64,000 nt of DNA, from sequence record PZ386967.1; one strand, written 5' to 3'. This DNA comes from a phage. Made by a program: the position numbers and the translations under genes. Positions 23,624-32,540 of the stretch are shown here, piece after piece (the stretch's first letter is position 1; the number at the start of each line of letters is the position of its first letter). The notes beneath the pieces are model-generated. The model was not told the origin of the DNA. It ran no database searches and saw only the letters and a list, made by a program, of their open reading frames with translations.

Positions 23624-24496
23624 ATGACAACTACATTTTCTAAGAACGTGAATCTGAATCTGGCTTTCGGTAATGCAAAGGGCGACGTCACATCGCCTGA
23701 CTTTGGTAAGATCCGCAATCAGGCGAAACTGGTGCTGGAAGAGACCCGCGAACTGCTGGAAGCGGTGTTCTTTGACCATGATGTGAAGGTGGAATTCACT
23801 GCAACTCCACGAGTCCTGAAAGAACCTGCCGTTGTGGACATCAAAGGCATCATGCGCCAGATCATGGATGCCCAGGGCGACATCACAACAGTCAACGACG
23901 GTTTGGCTCATATTGCTGGTTTCGACGGCGACGAATGCCTACAGCGCGTGTATGCGTCTAACATGAGCAAGTTCATTCGCAATGAAGGTGAAGTTGTGCC
24001 TGCACTGGATTACTACTACAACAAAGGCTTCCCACGCGAAAGTCTGCGCATCGAAGGGGAATTCCCTCAGGCGTGCATCAAAGTGGTAGACACCATCACC
24101 GTCGACGGCAAAGAATACCCGGCTGGCAAGTTCCTGAAGAACATGGCAACCTTCAAAGAGCCTGACTTCTCTGATATGCTGACTGCCGAGCCTAAGCGCC
24201 AGATCACTGAAATCATTCTGACGGGTACGGCCATTCCAGGCCAGCTCGGCTCTAACGAACACGCTGGTGTTGCCTTCGCTCCGTTCGATTTTATTGACGA
24301 GATCATGGGATACACCAAGATGGGCTTCCAGGCGTTCTCTGGCGAAACAGTCGAGAGCTACATTCCCGTGTTTGTTTTCAATGAAGACAACTTCCCAACT
24401 CTACCGTTGATCTGGGGTGAATGGAAAGCCAACGTCCGTATCTATGTGGCCAGCCCAGTGCAATCATCTATCACCCAACTGACCCGTATCGATTAA
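23624..24496 (+). CDS. Hypothetical protein (290 aa); possible MazG-like NTP pyrophosphohydrolase N-terminal domain
   Basis: VLEETRELLEAV resembles the EExxE metal-binding helix of MazG/HisE-type enzymes; weak. Confidence 0.35.
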   Translation: MTTTFSKNVNLNLAFGNAKGDVTSPDFGKIRNQAKLVLEETRELLEAVFFDHDVKVEFTATPRVLKEPAVVDIKGIMRQIMDAQGDITTVNDGLAHIAGFDGDECLQRVYASNMSKFIRNEGEVVPALDYYYNKGFPRESLRIEGEFPQACIKVVDTITVDGKEYPAGKFLKNMATFKEPDFSDMLTAEPKRQITEIILTGTAIPGQLGSNEHAGVAFAPFDFIDEIMGYTKMGFQAFSGETVESYIPVFVFNEDNFPTLPLIWGEWKANVRIYVASPVQSSITQLTRID

Positions 24497-24564
24497 GATA
24501 TACGGTTATTCACTAAACAACAGAGGCTATAATGGCCTCTGTTTTCGTATTCTAAGAGGATACC

Positions 24565-25788
24565 ATGAAAGATAAACCATATGACATCCCATATTGCGGT
24601 GTCCGTGAAACCAAAATCAAATCAGCCCATCCTATGTTAAGTTCATTCCACCGTCAGCTGGCATATGAATGGATGAGGGATCGTTATGCGATACATGTCA
24701 AGAAGGACGTGCAATGCCTTCCAGCGCCATGGACGGATAATCCGGTATTACGCCAAGTCAAGTTTTGTAACGTGCGGAGAGAGCACGATAGACAGTCTCG
24801 AAATTTGATCAATAATATCATCCTCAATCAGGATCTCACGCTATCTGACAAAATGTTCAACTGTGTATTGTTCCGCATGTACAACATGTGGGAACCTATA
24901 CAGGCTTTGGGTGGTCCATGGACGATCGAAGAATTCGGAAACATAAATCTTGAATGGTGTCGAAGTGTTCTTCAGGAATTCGAATCTAAAGGTGGCAAAG
25001 TTTTCACCAATGCGTTTAATACAGGCGGTCTGAAACAATGCCTGGCTTTCCCCGAACTAGTTGTCAACCACAAGGAGCAGCGCTTCGGTGGGATGATGGT
25101 GAATCTGATCTGTAAAGACGGTTCAACCCAGAACATGGATTACAAGGAAGCCAAGGCCATCGCTGAAGCAGAGCCGGACTTCTACACCATCGAAGGTTGG
25201 GAACCGTACATGCCAATGCGTGTCATCCGCTCCCTGAAGGCATTCGTCAACAAACACCCTCATTACTTTGATCGCCTCAGGGAATTTAGCCGTCCCGACT
25301 CTGTTTACCAGGCGATGTATGACGACATTGAGGGGCTTGGACCATTCTTGGCATACCAGATTTGGGTTGATTTTACATACATCGATGAATATCCATTCAG
25401 TGAAAACCACTTCACTATCGCTGGTCCAGGTTGCCGTGCTGGTATCGATCTGTTATTTTTGGACAAGGACGGCATGACGCATGAAGAATGCATATTCTGG
25501 GTTCGTGATCATCAAGATCAATTGTTCGCTCAGTATGGGTATAAACGTAATGAATTTTGGTCGGCAGAAGAACCGGAAGATCGTTGCATGAATGTTATGC
25601 AGCTGGAGAACATGTTCTGTGAACTTCAGAAATATACCCGCTGTGTTGAGGCAGTGATGCGCGGGGAGAAACCTCGAGGAAAGGTGGGGTATGACGGGAA
25701 TGGTAGTGCGTATAAGCAACGTTGTGATGAAGTCGTGCTCAAACGTGGTTCCGTCAATTTGCTGGACCGTTTGAAGAAACCTGAATAA
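24565..25788 (+). CDS. Hypothetical protein (407 aa), function unknown
   Basis: Long ORF with RBS; no motif recognised by eye. Confidence 0.5.
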   Translation: MKDKPYDIPYCGVRETKIKSAHPMLSSFHRQLAYEWMRDRYAIHVKKDVQCLPAPWTDNPVLRQVKFCNVRREHDRQSRNLINNIILNQDLTLSDKMFNCVLFRMYNMWEPIQALGGPWTIEEFGNINLEWCRSVLQEFESKGGKVFTNAFNTGGLKQCLAFPELVVNHKEQRFGGMMVNLICKDGSTQNMDYKEAKAIAEAEPDFYTIEGWEPYMPMRVIRSLKAFVNKHPHYFDRLREFSRPDSVYQAMYDDIEGLGPFLAYQIWVDFTYIDEYPFSENHFTIAGPGCRAGIDLLFLDKDGMTHEECIFWVRDHQDQLFAQYGYKRNEFWSAEEPEDRCMNVMQLENMFCELQKYTRCVEAVMRGEKPRGKVGYDGNGSAYKQRCDEVVLKRGSVNLLDRLKKPE

Positions 25789-25796
25789 AGATTCCC

Positions 25797-25834
25797 TTTA
25801 CTTCGTTCTTCAATAACTCAATCCAGCGTATATT
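25797..25834 (+). promoter_or_regulatory. Early promoter cassette variant (TTTACT ... TATATT) with 9-bp insertion in the spacer
   Basis: Shares TTTACTTC and CTTCAATAACTCA boxes with the other cassettes but the -35 to -10 spacing is 26 bp. Confidence 0.3.
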
Positions 25835-25902
25835 AACCTCACTTAAACGAAGCGCCCTGGCAAACGGGGCGCACATTTGAACTGAAACAGGAAGATTACA
25901 TC

Positions 25903-27921
25903 ATGTCAGATTTTAAGCCCTTCGCAGTAGCTGTCAACAATAACGTGCTGGCCATGTCAGCAACTGGTCTGTTCATGACCAACATCGATAAAGATGCTCT
26001 GTGGGATCTGTATCTGTCTTCTTTCCCTGCTGGCACTAACCCGCTTTATCGTGAGCGTACCGAGCACGACTGCACCTGCTGTAAACAATTCATCCGTAAT
26101 ATCGGCGGTGTGGTCACCATCGACTCCGACCTGAACGTGATCTCTATCTGGGATAACATTCAGCTGGGTAACGAATACGACGTTGTCGCTGCGGCGCTGT
26201 CAGCATATGTTAAGCAGCACGCAATCGTCGACGTGTACTTCAACGACACCAAGAAAGTTGGTGTTGAGTCGAATCACGAAATGAAAGACGGTATTGTCCG
26301 CACCTACAACCACTTCCACACCGACCTGCTGGGTAGCTATGTTCTGCGGGCAGATACCATCGCTTCTAAGAAGGGCGAAATCCGCCAGGCGATTGAAGTG
26401 TTTGAGCGCGGTCTGCGCGAACTGTCTCTGGAATCGGCTGAAATCGTTCTGGAATTGATTGACCAGAATTCTCTGTATCGCGGTGAAGAGCACAAAGCGG
26501 CAGTGCAGGCGTTCGTGGTGAACAAGACCCTGTACGAACAAACTGCAGAAGAGAAACGCGCTCTGTGGGCTTGGCGCACTGGCTACCGTGCAAACGGTCA
26601 TACCCCTCACGGCATTCGTAATACCGTGATTGGCTCTCTGCTGGTAGACCTCAATGAAGGCCGGGATTTGGAAACCGCCGTGAAGTCCTTTGAAGCCAAA
26701 GTCGCCCCGACGAACTACAAGCGCCCAACCGCGCTGGTCACGAAGTCGATGATTGAAAACGCGCAGAAAGAAGTCGAAGCGCTGGGTCTGACTGATTCAC
26801 TGGGTCGCCGTTATGCCGTGTATGACGATCTGACCATCAACAACGTTCTGTTCGCCGATCTGGCAGCTCAGAAGAAGATGGACCCGTTTGCTCAGCTGGC
26901 GTCTGAAGTGAAGACTCCGACCAAGTCCCTGGACAAGGTTGAAGAGATCACGATCGACGACTTCCTGGCCAACGTGTTGCCAAAGGCGCATTCCCTGGAA
27001 GTGCTGGTCGAAAACTCTCACATTGGCAACCTGATGTCCCTGATCGCTCCGGCTACCGCAGGCGCTCCTAACCTGTTCAAATGGAACAACGGTTTCAGCT
27101 GGTCATACAACGGTGAAGTGGCCGACTCCATCAAAGAGCGCGTGAAGACAGCAGGCGGCAACGTTGACAGCTTCCTCCGGGTGTCACTGGCTTGGCATAA
27201 CAACGACGACCTGGATCTGAGCATGAACGATCCTCTTCACAACCACGTATATTTTCGCAACCGTCGTTCGACAACTGGCGCAACTCTGGACATCGACATG
27301 AACGGTATGGACGGCATTGACCCAAATCGCCGTCCGGTGGAGAACATCTTCTTCAGCGATGAACGCAAGCTACGTGACGGGAATTATGAGTTCTATGTCA
27401 CCAACTTCAACAAGCGTGAAACCTGTGACGTTGGTTTCGAAATCGAAGTCGAATACAAAGGCCAGACCAAGCGCTTCTCACACCCTGGCCTGGGTAACAA
27501 AGATCGCACGTTGGCTGTTGTGGTTCAGGTTCGCGCTGGTCAGGTGGTTGACATCAGTTCTACCCTGAAAGACGACGCTCGCTCTCAGGAAATCTGGGGC
27601 ATCAAGACCTCCGTCTTCCAGAAGGTACAGCTGGTTCTGAACTCACCAAACCATTGGGACGGCGAGCAGACGGGCAACAAGCACGTGTTCTTCATCCTGG
27701 AAGGTTGTGCTAACCCTGTCGGCACCCGTGGTTTCTATAACGAATATCTGAAGCCGGAACTTGATAAACACCGCAAGGTTTTTGAAATGTTAGGTGGTAA
27801 GATTAAAGTACAGCCAAGCAATGAGCAGCTGTCCGGTCTGGGCTTCTCTACCACCCAACGCAACCACGTGTTCGTGAAGGTGAGCGGTTCGTTCAACCGC
27901 ACTGTGAAAGTTGTGTTCTAA
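25903..27921 (+). CDS. Hypothetical large protein (672 aa), function unknown
   Basis: Long ORF after the cassette; N-terminal HDCTCC motif and C-terminal Asp-rich DIDMNGMDGID segment; no confident family assignment. Confidence 0.5.
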   Translation: MSDFKPFAVAVNNNVLAMSATGLFMTNIDKDALWDLYLSSFPAGTNPLYRERTEHDCTCCKQFIRNIGGVVTIDSDLNVISIWDNIQLGNEYDVVAAALSAYVKQHAIVDVYFNDTKKVGVESNHEMKDGIVRTYNHFHTDLLGSYVLRADTIASKKGEIRQAIEVFERGLRELSLESAEIVLELIDQNSLYRGEEHKAAVQAFVVNKTLYEQTAEEKRALWAWRTGYRANGHTPHGIRNTVIGSLLVDLNEGRDLETAVKSFEAKVAPTNYKRPTALVTKSMIENAQKEVEALGLTDSLGRRYAVYDDLTINNVLFADLAAQKKMDPFAQLASEVKTPTKSLDKVEEITIDDFLANVLPKAHSLEVLVENSHIGNLMSLIAPATAGAPNLFKWNNGFSWSYNGEVADSIKERVKTAGGNVDSFLRVSLAWHNNDDLDLSMNDPLHNHVYFRNRRSTTGATLDIDMNGMDGIDPNRRPVENIFFSDERKLRDGNYEFYVTNFNKRETCDVGFEIEVEYKGQTKRFSHPGLGNKDRTLAVVVQVRAGQVVDISSTLKDDARSQEIWGIKTSVFQKVQLVLNSPNHWDGEQTGNKHVFFILEGCANPVGTRGFYNEYLKPELDKHRKVFEMLGGKIKVQPSNEQLSGLGFSTTQRNHVFVKVSGSFNRTVKVVF

Positions 27922-27965
27922 ACCTGATTTGAAATTGTAACCCATTCATCATTGAGGATAGTAAA

Positions 27966-28337
27966 ATGTTTGATAAAGCAACCCGTATGAAACTGCGCTT
28001 CGAGTCTAACAAAGGCCTGTTGTCTGTTGAGCAGGTCTGGGACCTGAGCCTGACTGCCCTGAACGAAATGGCGAAAGGTCTGAGCCGTCAGGTGAAAGCA
28101 GCAGAAACCGATGAAGAAGATTTCATTGGTACCAAAAGCAACGTTGACTCCGAACTGCAGCTGCGCTTCGACGTTGTCAAGCACATCATCGGCGTTAAGC
28201 TGAAAGAACGTGACGACAGCAGAGACGCGGCAGAGCGTAAGGCGAACAACCAGATTATCCTGGAGCTGATCCAGCGTAAGAAACAGCAAGAGCTGGAAAG
28301 CAAATCTGTTGAAGAACTGGAAGCACTCCTGAAATAA
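27966..28337 (+). CDS. Hypothetical coiled-coil protein (123 aa)
   Basis: Charged helical sequence; RBS GAGGA. Confidence 0.45.
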   Translation: MFDKATRMKLRFESNKGLLSVEQVWDLSLTALNEMAKGLSRQVKAAETDEEDFIGTKSNVDSELQLRFDVVKHIIGVKLKERDDSRDAAERKANNQIILELIQRKKQQELESKSVEELEALLK

Positions 28338-28360
28338 TCTGTCTGACCTCAGCCTGAGCA

Positions 28361-28387
28361 ACCCCGCCATGTGCGGGGTTTCTTTTG
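28361..28387 (+). terminator. Rho-independent terminator
   Basis: AACCCCGC-CATGT-GCGGGGTT followed by TCTTTT. Confidence 0.7.
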
Positions 28388-28397
28388 GACAAAGAAT

Positions 28398-28772
28398 ATG
28401 AAACCTGTTATATGCGATTACTGTGGCCTCCCAGCCGAATTCGTCGGTGGTGATGTTCTCTACCCTCATCACCCTGACCTCCGCAATCTGAAGTTCTGGG
28501 TGTGCACTCCATGTGATGCCCGTGTCGGTTGCCATGCCCATGGCGACGGCAGACAACCTTTGGGAAGGATGGCGAATGCCGCTCTCCGTGCTGCTAAGCA
28601 AAAAGCCCATAGATCGTTTGACCCATTATGGAAAAGCGGAGAGAGGAGCAGGAGCGACGCTTACAGTTGGCTGGCGCATAAGCTGGGGATTAAGAAGCGC
28701 GATTGCCATATCGGCTTGTTCGATATCGACATGTGCCGTAAAGTAGTGGAGGTCTGTAAACAAATATCATAG
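28398..28772 (+). CDS. Zinc-ribbon protein (DUF3268-like)
   Basis: CDYCG...CTPCDARVGCH cysteine pattern near N-terminus. Confidence 0.4.
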   Translation: MKPVICDYCGLPAEFVGGDVLYPHHPDLRNLKFWVCTPCDARVGCHAHGDGRQPLGRMANAALRAAKQKAHRSFDPLWKSGERSRSDAYSWLAHKLGIKKRDCHIGLFDIDMCRKVVEVCKQIS

Positions 28773-28780
28773 GAGAACAC

Positions 28781-29653
28781 ATGACAACTCGCACTGGCAT
28801 CAAACTCACTCCTGAAGTCCTGAAGTCACATATCGCTGAGGTGATTTACGAAGACCGCGAAGTCGGCGGTCACCGGGCTATCACTTGTCATTTCAAGATG
28901 GATAACGGCTTCGTCGTTCACGGCACCAAGCCCAGCACATCCATAGACCCGGCCAACTTCGATGAAGCCCTGGGCAAAGAGATTTCCTACAATAACACCT
29001 TCGACCAGCTGTGGCAGCTGGAGGCGTACCGGGCGCTTGTTGAACAAGATCTGTTGGCCAAAGCCACGGAAACGGCAGAGATCCGGATCGATCAATACGC
29101 TGTTGAACGTAGCGCCCTCTGTCCGGCCTATCACCTCGGCTTCAATGTGATGATTCAGGAAGTGATGTTCAGAGCGGAAAATGGCGAGCGCTTCTTGGCG
29201 TCTTTCATTTGTGGGCCGGATGACATGGAACTTGTTGTTGAATCTCACAACGCCAAATCTCGTAAGGCTGTTAGTGATTTCCTGCGCGCCAACTCCAAAC
29301 TCGATCTCACTTATTCGCCATTGGTTCTGCGCATCGCCAAGATTTGTCATGAAGCCAACCGCGCATACTGCAAGTCTATTGGTGACGACTCTCAACTGCC
29401 TTGGGAACAATCTCCGGCCTGGCAGCGTGAGAGCGCTTGCAAAGGTGTTATCTTCCATCTCACTGGTGATCGTAAGCCCAGCGAATCGCATGAGAGATGG
29501 ATGGCGGAGAAGGAGTCTGAGGGATGGGTATATGGCCCAGTCAAAGACCCTCAGACCAAGCAACACCCTTGCATAGTTCCGTATGGAGAACTCCCGGTAC
29601 AACAACGCTCCAAAGATTATATTTTCAAATCCATTGTAGACTCCTTTAAATAA
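28781..29653 (+). CDS. Hypothetical protein with Gp49-like N-terminal domain and C-terminal RyR-like domain
   Basis: N-terminal AITCHFKMDNGFVVHGTKPSTSIDPANFDEALGKEISYNNTFDQLWQLEAYRA and C-terminal ICHEANRAYC...PWEQSPAWQRESACKGV pattern recalled as phage Gp49-like and RyR domains; from memory only. Confidence 0.4.
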   Translation: MTTRTGIKLTPEVLKSHIAEVIYEDREVGGHRAITCHFKMDNGFVVHGTKPSTSIDPANFDEALGKEISYNNTFDQLWQLEAYRALVEQDLLAKATETAEIRIDQYAVERSALCPAYHLGFNVMIQEVMFRAENGERFLASFICGPDDMELVVESHNAKSRKAVSDFLRANSKLDLTYSPLVLRIAKICHEANRAYCKSIGDDSQLPWEQSPAWQRESACKGVIFHLTGDRKPSESHERWMAEKESEGWVYGPVKDPQTKQHPCIVPYGELPVQQRSKDYIFKSIVDSFK

Positions 29654-29687
29654 GCTCTGAATAATATTTCAACCTGTCAATAATATA

Positions 29688-29720
29688 ATGCCCGGTTATA
29701 TTCAATCGGGCATTTTTATT
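29688..29720 (+). terminator. Terminator hairpin within promoter-like region
   Basis: AATGCCCG-(12 nt)-CGGGCATT followed by TTTTATT; flanked by TGTCAATAATATAATG and TGTCGTAATATAATAG boxes. Confidence 0.5.
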
Positions 29721-29804
29721 ATATTAATTGGCATCAATACCGCCTGTCGTAATATAATAGTCCCATGTTAAAATAGTTAGGAAATATAACTCACGAGAGC
29801 CTGA

Positions 29805-29981
29805 TGACCGACAACAAATTAAAACGTGTCGGACTTGATTGTCTTGACAATTCATTCCGCCCCAGTGATGTTCTGGTCGCCCAAATGGAAAACAACCGGG
29901 ATTTCATTGAAACTATGCTGGAGAACGCCGACGCGAACTCCAAACACTCCAAAGCCCAAAAAGGTCAAAACGATGATTGAA
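29805..29981 (+). CDS. Small protein (58 aa), coupled to the downstream vWA gene
   Basis: ATG 29805 to TGA 29979-29981, overlapping the vWA ATG (ATGATTGA); replaces the Pro/Thr-rich N-terminal extension in track ORF 29826. Confidence 0.35.
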
Positions 29982-32174
29982 TCATTAACATTTAAGAATG
30001 CGGTTGCGACCGTTGCGCCGTCTAACCATGTAATCGTTGTGGATATCTCCGGTTCCATGTATCGTTCACTTCCAGAAGTCCGTAAGCATCTGAAGGAGAA
30101 CCTGCCTTCCCTGGTGAAACCCGAAGATACTGTGAGCATCCTTTACTTTTCATCTCGCGGTGATTTCGGAACGGTATTTGCCGGACGCCAGATCGGTGTC
30201 GCATCTGACCTGAGCGAGCTGAATAAGCTGATCGATCGCTTCCTGCAACCGTCCGGATGTACTGGCTTTGTTGAGCCGTTGAAACTGGCGATGGACACTG
30301 CTCGTAGCCTGAAGAAGCCTGGCTATGTCAACAACCTGGCGTTCATGACTGACGGGTATGACAACTGCTGGCGTACCAACGAAATCTTACTGGTTGCTGA
30401 GACCCTGCCATTTGCTTTCGATAACATTACTTTCATCGAATACGGCTGGCACTGTAACCGCGAACTGCTGGCGCAGATGGCCGAACGCTCCGGTGCGACC
30501 CACGTGTTTGCCGAAGGTCAGACCGAATACCAGACCGAACTAGAAAACGTGCTGAAGTCATCAGTGCCGAAGGTGAAAGTTGATGTCCCAGTCATCTACA
30601 CCCATGCCATCTACGTCGAAAACGGTGTGGCAACAGTACTGGCGGTGCAGGACGATGACTCTCACCCGGTCGGCTATGTGAGCATCCCTGAGAGCGTCAC
30701 CAAGCTGTGGGTTGTAAACCCTAACATGATCGACCAGCTTGATGCGCTGGCGGACATCCAGGCGGCATACGTGCTGGCGTTCTACGGCGTACACATCATG
30801 GACGCAGACCTGGTATGGGCTGCGCTGAAGAAGACGGGCGACGTTCGCTTCATCAAACAGTACAGCAACTGCTTTACCAAGCAGGACTACTCCAACATCA
30901 AGAACGATCTGGTACAGGCGATTGTTGACGACCAGCTGCGCGGCGTTGACGGTATTGACTATGACCTGGTTCCGGCTGAAGATGCGACGACCGTCGTTGA
31001 CGTGCTGACGTATCTGGCTGAAGCTGGCGTGTCTGTTGCCACCAAACATCCTATGTTCTCCTACAAGAGCATTGGTCGCGGTACTGTGCAGAAAGCGGAC
31101 GATACCGAAGACAAACTGGCAGAACAGATCGCGAATGCTCAGTCCAAAGAAGAGCGTAAAGCCCTGGCTCTCAAGCTGGCTGAGCACGAAGAATGGACGC
31201 CGTCGTTTGAACCTGCCAACGATCTGGGCGTTATCTCAATCAGCGATCTGGTCTACAACTCTGAGCGCCCGAACATCAGTGTGCGCACTATTCAGCATGG
31301 TACTGTGACTGTCCCTGAGTTCGCACAGAAGAAGTTTGGTCTGCCTGAAGAACTGGATACTTTCCAGTGGCGCAACTACACCATCGTCAAAGATGGTATC
31401 ATCAACGTGAAGACCCTGCCGTTCAAGGCTGATATCGAAGTTGTACAGAAGCTGATCGAAATGGGCGTCCACGTGTTTGGTGGACCGGAAGTGTTTGTCC
31501 TGAACCTGGAAAGCGTACCGCTGGTCAACCGCGCCATGGTCAAGAACATCAGTGCTGCTCAGTTCTTTGCGGATAATGTCCGTTTGGAAGCCCTGAAAGG
31601 CAAGCAGAAGGTGCTGAAGTTCTATCGAGACGCCCTGGTTGGTAAAGGTAACGCCAAAGGCCTGGCAGTACAGTACGGCGCTGAGGCGGCCGAGTTCCTG
31701 TCCTCCTACGGCATCCGCGATTACGGCTTCTCACCGAAGACTGAGACCAAAGAGTCTACCGACTTCTACATGAGCCGGGAGCTGAACGTGAAGATCGCTG
31801 GCGCTTCATCTCTACCGTCTATCGCAGCGGTACAGAAGAAGATTGCCGAGAACAAGAAACTCAATGCTGGTGACTTGTTCATCGCCAATGCTCTGAAAGA
31901 GTACGAAGCATTCGTGAAGTCTCCTATGATCACTGCCGTGCCTGAAGCCTTACAGAAACAGCTGATCGAAAACTGGATCGACGCTGCTGCCAAGGCGGCC
32001 ATCACCGAAGTCCGTGCCCTGAACAAGACACTGTCTAAAGTGGTGTATGGTATCGTTGCTGGCCACGGCTGGTTCACCGACCTCGACCTGGAAGAGTCCA
32101 CCATGGAAGTTGAAGTGGATGGCGTGAAGTACAAGGTCACTGCCGAACTGACAGAGAAAGAAATCAAAATCTAA
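29973..32174 (+). CDS. von Willebrand factor A (vWA) domain protein, 733 aa
   Basis: MIDAS motif DISGSM near N-terminus followed by a vWA-like region (LAFMTDG); long C-terminal extension of unknown function. Confidence 0.6.
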   Translation: MIESLTFKNAVATVAPSNHVIVVDISGSMYRSLPEVRKHLKENLPSLVKPEDTVSILYFSSRGDFGTVFAGRQIGVASDLSELNKLIDRFLQPSGCTGFVEPLKLAMDTARSLKKPGYVNNLAFMTDGYDNCWRTNEILLVAETLPFAFDNITFIEYGWHCNRELLAQMAERSGATHVFAEGQTEYQTELENVLKSSVPKVKVDVPVIYTHAIYVENGVATVLAVQDDDSHPVGYVSIPESVTKLWVVNPNMIDQLDALADIQAAYVLAFYGVHIMDADLVWAALKKTGDVRFIKQYSNCFTKQDYSNIKNDLVQAIVDDQLRGVDGIDYDLVPAEDATTVVDVLTYLAEAGVSVATKHPMFSYKSIGRGTVQKADDTEDKLAEQIANAQSKEERKALALKLAEHEEWTPSFEPANDLGVISISDLVYNSERPNISVRTIQHGTVTVPEFAQKKFGLPEELDTFQWRNYTIVKDGIINVKTLPFKADIEVVQKLIEMGVHVFGGPEVFVLNLESVPLVNRAMVKNISAAQFFADNVRLEALKGKQKVLKFYRDALVGKGNAKGLAVQYGAEAAEFLSSYGIRDYGFSPKTETKESTDFYMSRELNVKIAGASSLPSIAAVQKKIAENKKLNAGDLFIANALKEYEAFVKSPMITAVPEALQKQLIENWIDAAAKAAITEVRALNKTLSKVVYGIVAGHGWFTDLDLEESTMEVEVDGVKYKVTAELTEKEIKI

Positions 32175-32216
32175 TCCAACGGGCGGGGCAACCCGCCTTT
32201 CTTTGGGAGAAGTAGC

Positions 32217-32540
32217 ATGAGCAGTAAACCAACATATGTTGAAGTCATGCGTCATCTGGCTCAGTACGCCACTGACAATCTGAACTTGGATCTGTGGCGT
32301 GACGATGACAAGCGCAAATTGCTGGACGACGTGGCATCTCAGAACGAGGACGCCCTAGACAAGCTGGCTGGCCTCCGCACCAAGAAAGACCTCGGCGGTG
32401 ATGAACTGGACGCTATCGAAATTGTAATGGACCTCGAAGAAGAGTTTCAGGTCGAAATCGACGATGGTTGGCTGGGCAGTAAAGGTGATGACCCGACCAT
32501 GGGTGAACTCGCTGAACTCGTGGTTGCCCTGCGCAAATAA
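32217..32540 (+). CDS. Acyl-carrier-protein-like acidic protein with the phosphopantetheine Ser replaced by Glu
   Basis: DLGGDELDAIEIVMDLEEEFQVEIDD aligns with E. coli ACP [26 protein letters not shown]; the attachment Ser is Glu here. Confidence 0.55.
   Translation: MSSKPTYVEVMRHLAQYATDNLNLDLWRDDDKRKLLDDVASQNEDALDKLAGLRTKKDLGGDELDAIEIVMDLEEEFQVEIDDGWLGSKGDDPTMGELAELVVALRK

Follow-up and report, generated by a model that had tools for sequence, protein, structure and literature searches.

A run of large genes with few assigned functions in the genome of a Kuttervirus raises the question of whether genes that lie side by side also work together. The run occupies positions 24,565 to 32,174 of the 64,000-nucleotide (nt) stretch of sequence record PZ386967.1 that was analysed here (the window), and the original prediction had read it as a single undescribed host-takeover or anti-defence module without a counterpart in phage T4. 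The phage is of the Kuttervirus type (ViI-like Ackermannviridae), and the block is 92-94% identical to several deposited Kuttervirus genomes; over the 7.6-kb interval the relatives in this range are Salmonella phages vB_CECAV_050, Marshall and Maynard and Escherichia phages PC3 and PH4, and at least 80% of the stretch is covered by 157 phage records. The block lies downstream of clamp, clamp-loader, RegA and MazG-like genes and comprises seven open reading frames (ORFs), all on the + strand, which encode proteins of 407, 672, 123, 124, 290, 58 and 733 amino acids (aa).

The answer reached here is that the interval is probably a syntenic but functionally mixed stretch of the replication/nucleotide-metabolism arm of the Ackermannviridae, composed of four pieces rather than forming one machine. 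Within this stretch, only the 672- and 123-aa genes behave as a true module. The ORFs named in the original prediction are all present on the + strand, and to them must be added the 123-aa gene (27966-28337), which was not listed there. The earlier observation is therefore confirmed and its interpretation partly supported, with the lead passing to a two-gene cassette that is widespread in phages and bacteria.

Co-occurrence and transcription units of the block genes

The joint inheritance of the block genes was analysed in 80 viral loci from IMG/VR with the 672-aa family, 63 of them below 60% identity, and in 22 close and 58 distant loci with the family of the 733-aa protein, which carries a vWA domain. 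A vWA, gp160, MazG or acyl carrier protein (ACP) gene lies near the 672-aa family in just 1 of the 63 distant loci, and this locus belongs to phiMAM1, itself an Ackermannviridae phage. The vWA family is accompanied by other block genes in 1 of its 58 distant loci, and the neighbourhoods of phages RB16 and KNP2 agree with this lack of co-occurrence. The genes are thus scattered and non-co-occurring, the very distribution that the original prediction had set against its own proposal of a single undescribed module, and the one-module view is largely refuted by this test.

The transcriptional layout divides the block as well. Four terminator-like hairpins on the + strand, all of which match the positions of terminators annotated in phage Maynard, delimit at least three transcription units. 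The first unit contains the 407-, 672- and 123-aa genes; it starts after a hairpin located 3' of the MazG-like gene (24519..24543; an 11-bp stem followed by a T-run) and is closed by a second one (28360..28380; an 8-bp stem with six GC pairs and a T-run). The second unit contains the 124- and 290-aa genes and the third the 58-aa and vWA genes, the hairpin scan placing a terminator-like structure 3' of each (29687..29714 and 32181..32198, respectively), after which an acyl-carrier-like gene follows. The early-promoter cassette that had been invoked for the 672-aa gene was not recovered, since the sigma-70 scan gave no site on the + strand between 25789 and 25902; by eye, the hexamers TTTACT and TATATT can be found 26 nt apart. 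The 114-nt spacer between the 407- and 672-aa genes also harbors a GC-rich hairpin (GCGCCC…GGGGCGC; 25850-25875, + strand) without a T-run, which could be an RNA processing or attenuation signal.

The 672/123 gene pair

The 672-aa gene (25903-27921, + strand), coding for the large subunit of the two-gene cassette, is followed by that of its 123-aa helical partner (27966-28337, + strand). A homolog of the latter stands beside the large gene in all 80 IMG/VR viral loci (77 by tblastn and the other three by clustering), usually just 3' of it with a median gap of 39 nt, and 5' of it in three loci. In five unrelated phages, a gene coding for 127-140 aa lies just 3' of the large gene, with one short ORF in between in KNP2, and these products are homologous to the 123-aa protein (BLASTP E 1e-18 to 1e-32; Bacillus, Caulobacter, Alteromonas and Klebsiella phages). 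The association extends to bacteria, in which the scanning of one genome per species yielded 80 loci, 79 of them with the partner adjacent; in the exception, the contig ends 48 nt past the large gene. The 672-aa family is large (more than 5,500 homolog clusters at E<=0.001, with the precomputed Pfam label PF26675) and shows 40-52% full-length identity in Klebsiella Mydovirus, Caulobacter phiCbK-like, Bacillus BCP78 and Alteromonas AD45-P3 phages, together with many invariant Arg, Tyr and Asp residues. The homolog in Microcystis MaMV-DC is more distant (35% identity). A literature search on PF26675 found no functional study.

The bacterial carriers comprise about 50 Micromonosporaceae species, others being genomes or metagenome-assembled genomes assigned to Myxococcota, Bradyrhizobium and Sericytochromatia. 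The blastn similarity among 39 of the Micromonosporaceae loci is limited to a 2.7-kb operon, from about 95 nt 5' of the start codon to the stop codon of the partner, with zero DNA similarity in either flank. The neighbours of the pair in these chromosomes are transporters, oxidoreductases and regulators; phage, integrase and defence domains are not among the commonest neighbour families, and no terminal repeats, integrase or transposase mark the ends of the cassette. A Pfam census of neighbours in phages, Micromonosporaceae and other bacteria revealed no recurrent partner either. On these distributions, the 672- and 123-aa genes would appear to make up a self-contained operon of their own, which passes between widely differing phages and the chromosomes of bacteria. 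Upstream of the Micromonosporaceae copies (loci L205-L257), about 95 nt 5' of the 672-aa homolog, there is a conserved element in which the near-palindrome GGAAAnGCGnTTCTCC is followed by a TAGGAT -10-like hexamer and then by a GGGGGA ribosome-binding site, an arrangement that suggests a putative shared regulator.

The N-terminus of the 672-aa protein is an alpha/beta and helical region with a near-invariant CxxC, and in the AlphaFold2 (AF2) model of the protein (predicted local distance difference test, pLDDT, 82) its C-terminal alpha/beta domain bears an inserted TerD-like beta-sandwich at about aa 420-555. The fold test on the insert identified the TerD beta-sandwich, which is also the best structural match of the protein, but the TerD Pfam profile gave no match to the segment aa 400-560 scanned alone at E<=5. 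Compared with TerD proteins (PDB 2kxt, 2qz7), the TerD-like part is here an insert in a much larger protein that presents no other Ter features and has no ter operon genes nearby; furthermore, it is always accompanied by the 123-aa partner, the like of which is not known for TerD proteins. The protein has no match in the local Pfam (from which PF26675 is absent), NCBIfam and PADLOC libraries, and neither it nor the 672/123-aa family profiles retrieved anything significant among PDB sequences. Foldseek of the model against BFVD returned only uncharacterised phage proteins and one giant-virus protein, and domain-wise Pfam scans of the 672- and 733-aa proteins at E<=5 gave only noise (PinA inhibitor, E 0.024; mRNA capping enzyme, E 0.2; both well under cut-off). 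The 123-aa protein has no Pfam or PDB match, and in a search for fusions with its family profile the best 120 matches were all of 122-152 aa, none with a Pfam domain.

A possible role for the insert emerges from relatives that lack it. Phages A1432, Eowyn, D148, phiH2 and 2050HW encode insert-less versions of 531-552 aa, to which a divergent 722-aa Cellulophaga version can be added; all six keep the CxxC motif and the C-terminal domain, do not have the insert motif and show no 123-aa-type partner within 3-4 kb. Because no partner is found near these insert-less relatives, the partner tracks the TerD-like insert, which points to an interaction at that site: the 672- and 123-aa proteins would form a complex via the beta-sandwich. 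The short relatives adjoin genes for DNA ligase, ribonucleotide reductase or dihydrofolate reductase (DHFR).

The pair is not essential everywhere. It is dispensable in Dickeya phage XF4, in which a single deletion has removed the large gene from residue 90 onwards (90-672), all of the partner gene and 33 codons from the start of the 124-aa DUF3268 gene. The phage retains gp160, the ACP-like gene and both the 58-aa and the vWA gene, the latter with 91% identity. In XF4, the gene for homing endonuclease F-LimVI separates gp160 from what is left of the 672-aa gene (locus L177 5487-6272), and the deletion starts about 115 nt 3' of the endonuclease gene. In the ViI reference, the 672-aa gene is annotated as two coding sequences, Vi01_129c and Vi01_128c, both noted as orf00158 (locus L005 25300-27319, - strand), a split due to either a frameshift or a sequencing error. 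The gene is also fragmented in other deposited Ackermannviridae genomes, and PHROGs hold fragment families of the protein. In Bacillus phage BCP78, genes for an Apyc1-like metallo-beta-lactamase (anti-Pycsar family, E 7e-16) and an AAA ATPase are located just 3' of the pair (locus L008 8863-9609).

The gp160-type, vWA and accessory genes

The first gene of the block (24565-25788, + strand) codes for a 407-aa protein that matches Pfam PF18723 HMUDK_hel ('5-hmdU DNA kinase, helical domain', where 5-hmdU is 5-hydroxymethyldeoxyuridine) with an E value of 2.4e-83 and 280 bits against a cut-off of 25, the match spanning profile positions 5-278 of 281. Its nearest relative is found in Enterobacter phage fGh-Ecl02 (99.3%). 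Most genes of the block are indeed without an assigned function, as had been claimed, but this one is an ortholog of ViI gp160: it is 79% identical over all 407 residues to Vi01_130c (noted as 'orf00160'), from which it shows no structural difference and which occupies the same position in ViI, between the MazG-like gene and the 672-aa gene. According to Lee et al. 2018 (PMC5889632), gp160 is one of two aG/PT-PPlase paralogs, named aG/PT-PPlase1, and five recombinant lysates including gp160 jointly turned 5-hmdU DNA into 5-(2-aminoethoxy)methyl-2'-deoxyuridine (5-NeOmdU), the natural thymidine hypermodification of ViI. The same article reports an HMUDK_hel-type domain fused to a 5-hmdU DNA kinase in gp186 of phage SP10 (PMC5889632, Table 3), and places the 5-hmdU DNA kinase, amino-acid:DNA transferase and dUMP hydroxymethylase genes of Kuttervirus at scattered positions, which lie outside the block here (PMC5889632). 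The purified-enzyme pathway of Lee et al. 2021 involves kinases gp67/gp243, the serine:DNA transferase gp247 and the pyridoxal phosphate (PLP) decarboxylase gp226, and in the available portion of that article gp160 is credited with no activity (PMC8989533).

In Vibrio phage D509, the homolog of the 407-aa protein (47% identity) is encoded two small ORFs 3' of the adjacent 5-hmdU DNA kinase 2 (HMUD2) and amino-acid:DNA transferase (ADDT) genes, and further 3' there come, over the next few kb, genes for a thymidylate-synthase-like protein, a dNMP kinase and a dUTPase, the HMUD2, ADDT, HMUDK_hel and Thymidylat_synt-like genes all lying inside 7 kb. Because of the HMUDK_hel match, the orthology and synteny with gp160, the role of gp160 in the 5-NeOmdU reconstitution and the D509 cluster, the 407-aa gene can be assigned to the described thymidine-hypermodification (anti-restriction) gene set. 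The suggestion of an undescribed anti-defence function hence survives only in its second half, since this gene does sit in an anti-restriction pathway, but one already described (PMC5889632). The gp160-type protein would be a helical DNA-binding accessory of the pathway from 5-hmdU to 5-NeOmdU and most likely partners a 5-hmdU DNA kinase; its family membership follows from the profile match and the partner is suggested by the SP10 fusion. A literature search on HMUDK_hel found no functional study of these proteins, and a PDB sequence search with the 407-aa protein gave nothing significant.

At the other end of the block, a 58-aa ORF (29804-29980, + strand; phrog_11447, E 2e-44) precedes the gene for the 733-aa vWA protein (29973-32174, + strand; Pfam VWA PF00092, 29.4 bits against a cut-off of 23.8). 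Two details of the original prediction hold well here: the stop of the 58-aa ORF overlaps the vWA ATG by 8 nt (ATGATTGA), in line with the proposed coupling, and the metal ion-dependent adhesion site (MIDAS) motif 'VVDISGSM' is intact, with D24, S26, S28, T97 and D127 invariant or nearly so across 54 homologs. The protein (AF2 model, pLDDT 88) presents a vWA domain with complete MIDAS and then a beta-sandwich (aa 1 to ~290), resembling ArnB, ITIH and Sec24. Its last ~440 aa have no structural match, and neither the protein nor the vWA family profile retrieved anything significant beyond the vWA domain among PDB sequences. With respect to vWA plus beta-sandwich proteins of the ArnB (Sulfolobus), TerY and ITIH types (PDB 8s05_B, 4fx5, 6fpy), identity is only 12-16% and the ~440 residues are extra; moreover, in contrast to ArnAB/TerY systems, the block contains no kinase/phosphatase genes and any ArnA-type FHA/Zn-ribbon partner would be hypothetical. 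The family also differs from the MoxR AAA+/vWA chaperone pairs (NorQ/NorD, RavA/ViaA; phage MoxR-vWA pairs, PMC7824862), since an AAA+ gene is missing beside it in 57 of 58 distant loci, in the block and in annotated relatives: tblastn with phage MoxR gave a hit in one of the 58 distant loci and in none of the 22 close ones, Pfam detected no AAA+ domain in the block proteins and none is annotated in 50 kb of the closest relative.

The vWA protein has full-length homologs among T4-like phages (RB16, Miro and Cronobacter phages), and others in Shewanella Thanatos-1, Pseudomonas pf16 and numerous contigs of jumbo phages. The claimed absence of T4 counterparts can be accepted only in a loose sense: the full-length homologs of this protein in T4-like Straboviridae such as RB16 and Klebsiella phage Miro are about 48% identical. 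A conserved partner of the vWA family was looked for and none was found. The 58-aa ORF is kept in fGh-Ecl02 (43% identity) and XF4 (40%), and ViI has an unannotated ORF of this type that ends in …NNDD and overlaps the vWA start; among vWA-homolog loci, it was not detected outside the Ackermannviridae. The two genes would therefore be described as a putative Ackermannviridae-specific coupled pair, in which the vWA protein probably serves as a protein-protein adaptor that depends on the MIDAS metal. The acidic C-terminus of the small protein (…QNDD here, with …NDD as the Kuttervirus ending) suggests, by inference only, a candidate MIDAS ligand or regulator of the vWA protein. A literature search on vWA/MIDAS proteins in phage anti-defence found no functional study of these proteins. 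About 1 kb 3' of the vWA homolog, 14 environmental contigs, among them several of jumbo size, encode a 494-aa protein with a GT51 peptidoglycan transglycosylase domain (Pfam Transgly, E 4e-41; e.g. locus L128 11073-12557).

The second transcription unit encodes a 124-aa Zn-ribbon protein of the DUF3268 family (28398-28772, + strand; Pfam PF11672, E 7e-38, 130.1 bits against a cut-off of 28.4) and a 290-aa protein (28781-29653, + strand) with an N-terminal Phage_gp49_66 domain (N4 gp49 / Sf6 gp66; E 1.4e-11, 45.1 bits against 27) and a C-terminal RyR domain (E 4e-10, 40.2 bits against 27.4). These Pfam matches, like that of the vWA domain, lie above the curated cut-offs and bear out the domain calls made earlier. 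The ATG at 28398 is the likely start of the Zn-ribbon gene, because a longer GTG start at 28371 sits in the terminator stem. The DUF3268 gene is missing from phiMAM1 and truncated in XF4. In ViI and phiMAM1, the ortholog of the 290-aa protein retains the gp49_66 domain and gave no RyR match, so that the RyR domain is likely a lineage-specific C-terminal addition. In fGh-Ecl02, three unrelated small ORFs replace the 290-aa gene, of which just the last codons remain. To judge from these genome comparisons, the Zn-ribbon and gp49/RyR genes are interchangeable accessory genes.

The block is flanked by two further genes. Directly 5' of the gp160-type gene, a MazG-like pyrophosphohydrolase (23624-24496, + strand), syntenic with it across the Ackermannviridae, may clear competing dNTPs for the 5-hmdU pathway. 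Acyl carrier proteins bear phosphopantetheine on the serine of a 'DSL' motif, which is canonical in E. coli; the acyl-carrier-like protein encoded just 3' of the block (32217-32540, + strand) presents 'GGDELD' at this site, and its counterparts have DDL in ViI and DEL in phiMAM1. These phage proteins are probably unable to bear the cofactor at its usual position, and they may instead be mimics or binding partners. Homing endonuclease genes sit at differing points of the block among relatives, an HNH homing endonuclease gene being located 5' of the gp160 gene in Maynard (locus L001 5190-5819).

Rival readings and the significance of the pair

We regard it as very improbable that the whole block is one undescribed host-takeover/anti-defence module with proteins acting together. 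A collinear same-strand order is kept across Kuttervirus, Taipeivirus and Miltonvirus, gp160 is a member of an anti-restriction pathway and most members lack an assigned function, all of which would suit such a module; it is countered by the hairpins that yield at least three units, by the different distribution of the components outside the family, by the replacement of the gp49/RyR gene in fGh-Ecl02, by XF4, which keeps the vWA gene and has lost the 672/123 pair and part of DUF3268, and by the lack of matches to PADLOC defence models among eight proteins at E<=0.01. An NCBIfam scan of the block proteins gave nothing informative. Slim credence can likewise be given to a phage Ter-like calcium-responsive system that would unite the TerD-like 672-aa protein and its partner with the Zn-ribbon protein and the ArnB/TerY-like vWA protein, for instance in the superinfection exclusion that has been suggested for the Ter genes of jumbo phages. 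The partner of ArnB, ArnA, is a zinc-ribbon protein, which counts in favour of this proposal, as do the TerD fold match of the insert, the pair of Alteromonas phage AD45-P3, which adjoins a DUF2201 vWA-like protein and a MoxR-like ATPase, and the reports of Ter components (TerD, the TerF vWA protein and TelA) in phages, including jumbo phages (PMC7824862; PMC8386662). A link of the pair to MoxR/vWA-like genes, an idea taken from AD45-P3, was dropped, since no more than about 4 of 63 loci have MoxR or DUF2201 close to the pair. Pfam detects no TerB, TerC, TelA, kinase, phosphatase or FHA domain in the block, and the TerD profile misses the insert even at the permissive threshold used. A joint Ter-like system is therefore unlikely, because the 672-aa and vWA families are not co-inherited outside the Ackermannviridae, there are no other Ter genes and XF4 keeps the vWA gene without the pair.

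Several points weigh against the reading of the interval as a functionally mixed stretch carrying an autonomous pair. Most Ackermannviridae keep the entire block in collinear order on a single strand, and there may therefore be a family-specific functional link between its parts. Two 'Ter'-flavoured folds, the TerD-like insert and the vWA domain with its ArnB-like beta-sandwich, coincide within 7.6 kb. The 672-aa protein in its N-terminal domains, the 123-aa protein and the final 440 aa of the vWA protein have no structural match from which a function could be read, and the mechanistic parts proposed for the 672/123 and 58-aa/vWA pieces are inference only. The XF4 deletion is a single event and does not prove independent co-loss of both genes. 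Finally, the frequent phage neighbours of the pair (DNA polymerase A, DNA ligase, helicases or ribonucleotide reductase) would fit replication/repair better than conflict.

As to what the 672/123 pair may do, we would guess at a metal-binding accessory system of two proteins, dispensable and horizontally mobile, whose targets are nucleotides or nucleic acids or which serves in stress or in conflict between genetic elements; it is probably no part of the core replisome. We put forward only tentatively that the pair is an undescribed autonomous system (its own promoter plus two genes, ~2.7 kb), common to unrelated virulent phages and bacterial chromosomes and entering unrelated sites without a recognisable mobility gene, in which the insert and the partner would be a metal-dependent sensor/effector in conflict or stress. 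A DNA replication/repair accessory factor, aiding for instance ligase or polymerase, is a serious rival to such a conflict/stress system and is held with the same reserve. The commonest neighbours in non-Ackermannviridae viral loci are DNA polymerase A (~15), DNA ligase (~15), DnaB-like helicase (8), phosphoesterase (6) and RecD-like helicase (4), and the gene neighbours of the short relatives, together with a very high identity across distant hosts (40-50%) and the many invariant residues, are congruent with such a factor. This is offset by the isolated position of the pair in about 50 Micromonosporaceae chromosomes, where unrelated genes of metabolism and transport surround it, by its deletion in XF4, its fragmentation in other Ackermannviridae genomes and its split in ViI, and by the lack of any detected nucleic-acid-enzyme fold or profile. 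The product names of some GenBank records (KNP2, FrontPhageNews, ChubbyThor; Sajous1 table) are all that speaks for the 672-aa protein as a DNA-directed RNA polymerase, and we give this next to no credence: Pfam, NCBIfam, PDB-sequence and fold searches found no such domain or fold, and the best structural match is the TerD beta-sandwich, with no double-psi beta-barrel or T7-like fold seen.

Two annotations follow from these results. The 407-aa 'hypothetical protein' of hundreds of Ackermannviridae genomes can be renamed as a putative gp160-type thymidine-hypermodification accessory protein, and the 'DNA-directed RNA polymerase' label on the 672-aa family is unsupported and should be dropped. 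The useful lead is the 672/123 pair, not the block, with thousands of members at 40-50% identity across phages of Bacillus, Caulobacter, cyanobacteria and enterobacteria, and the natural deletion in XF4 together with culturable hosts makes it directly testable. Should the pair turn out to serve in conflict or stress, a new family common to phages and bacteria would be gained.

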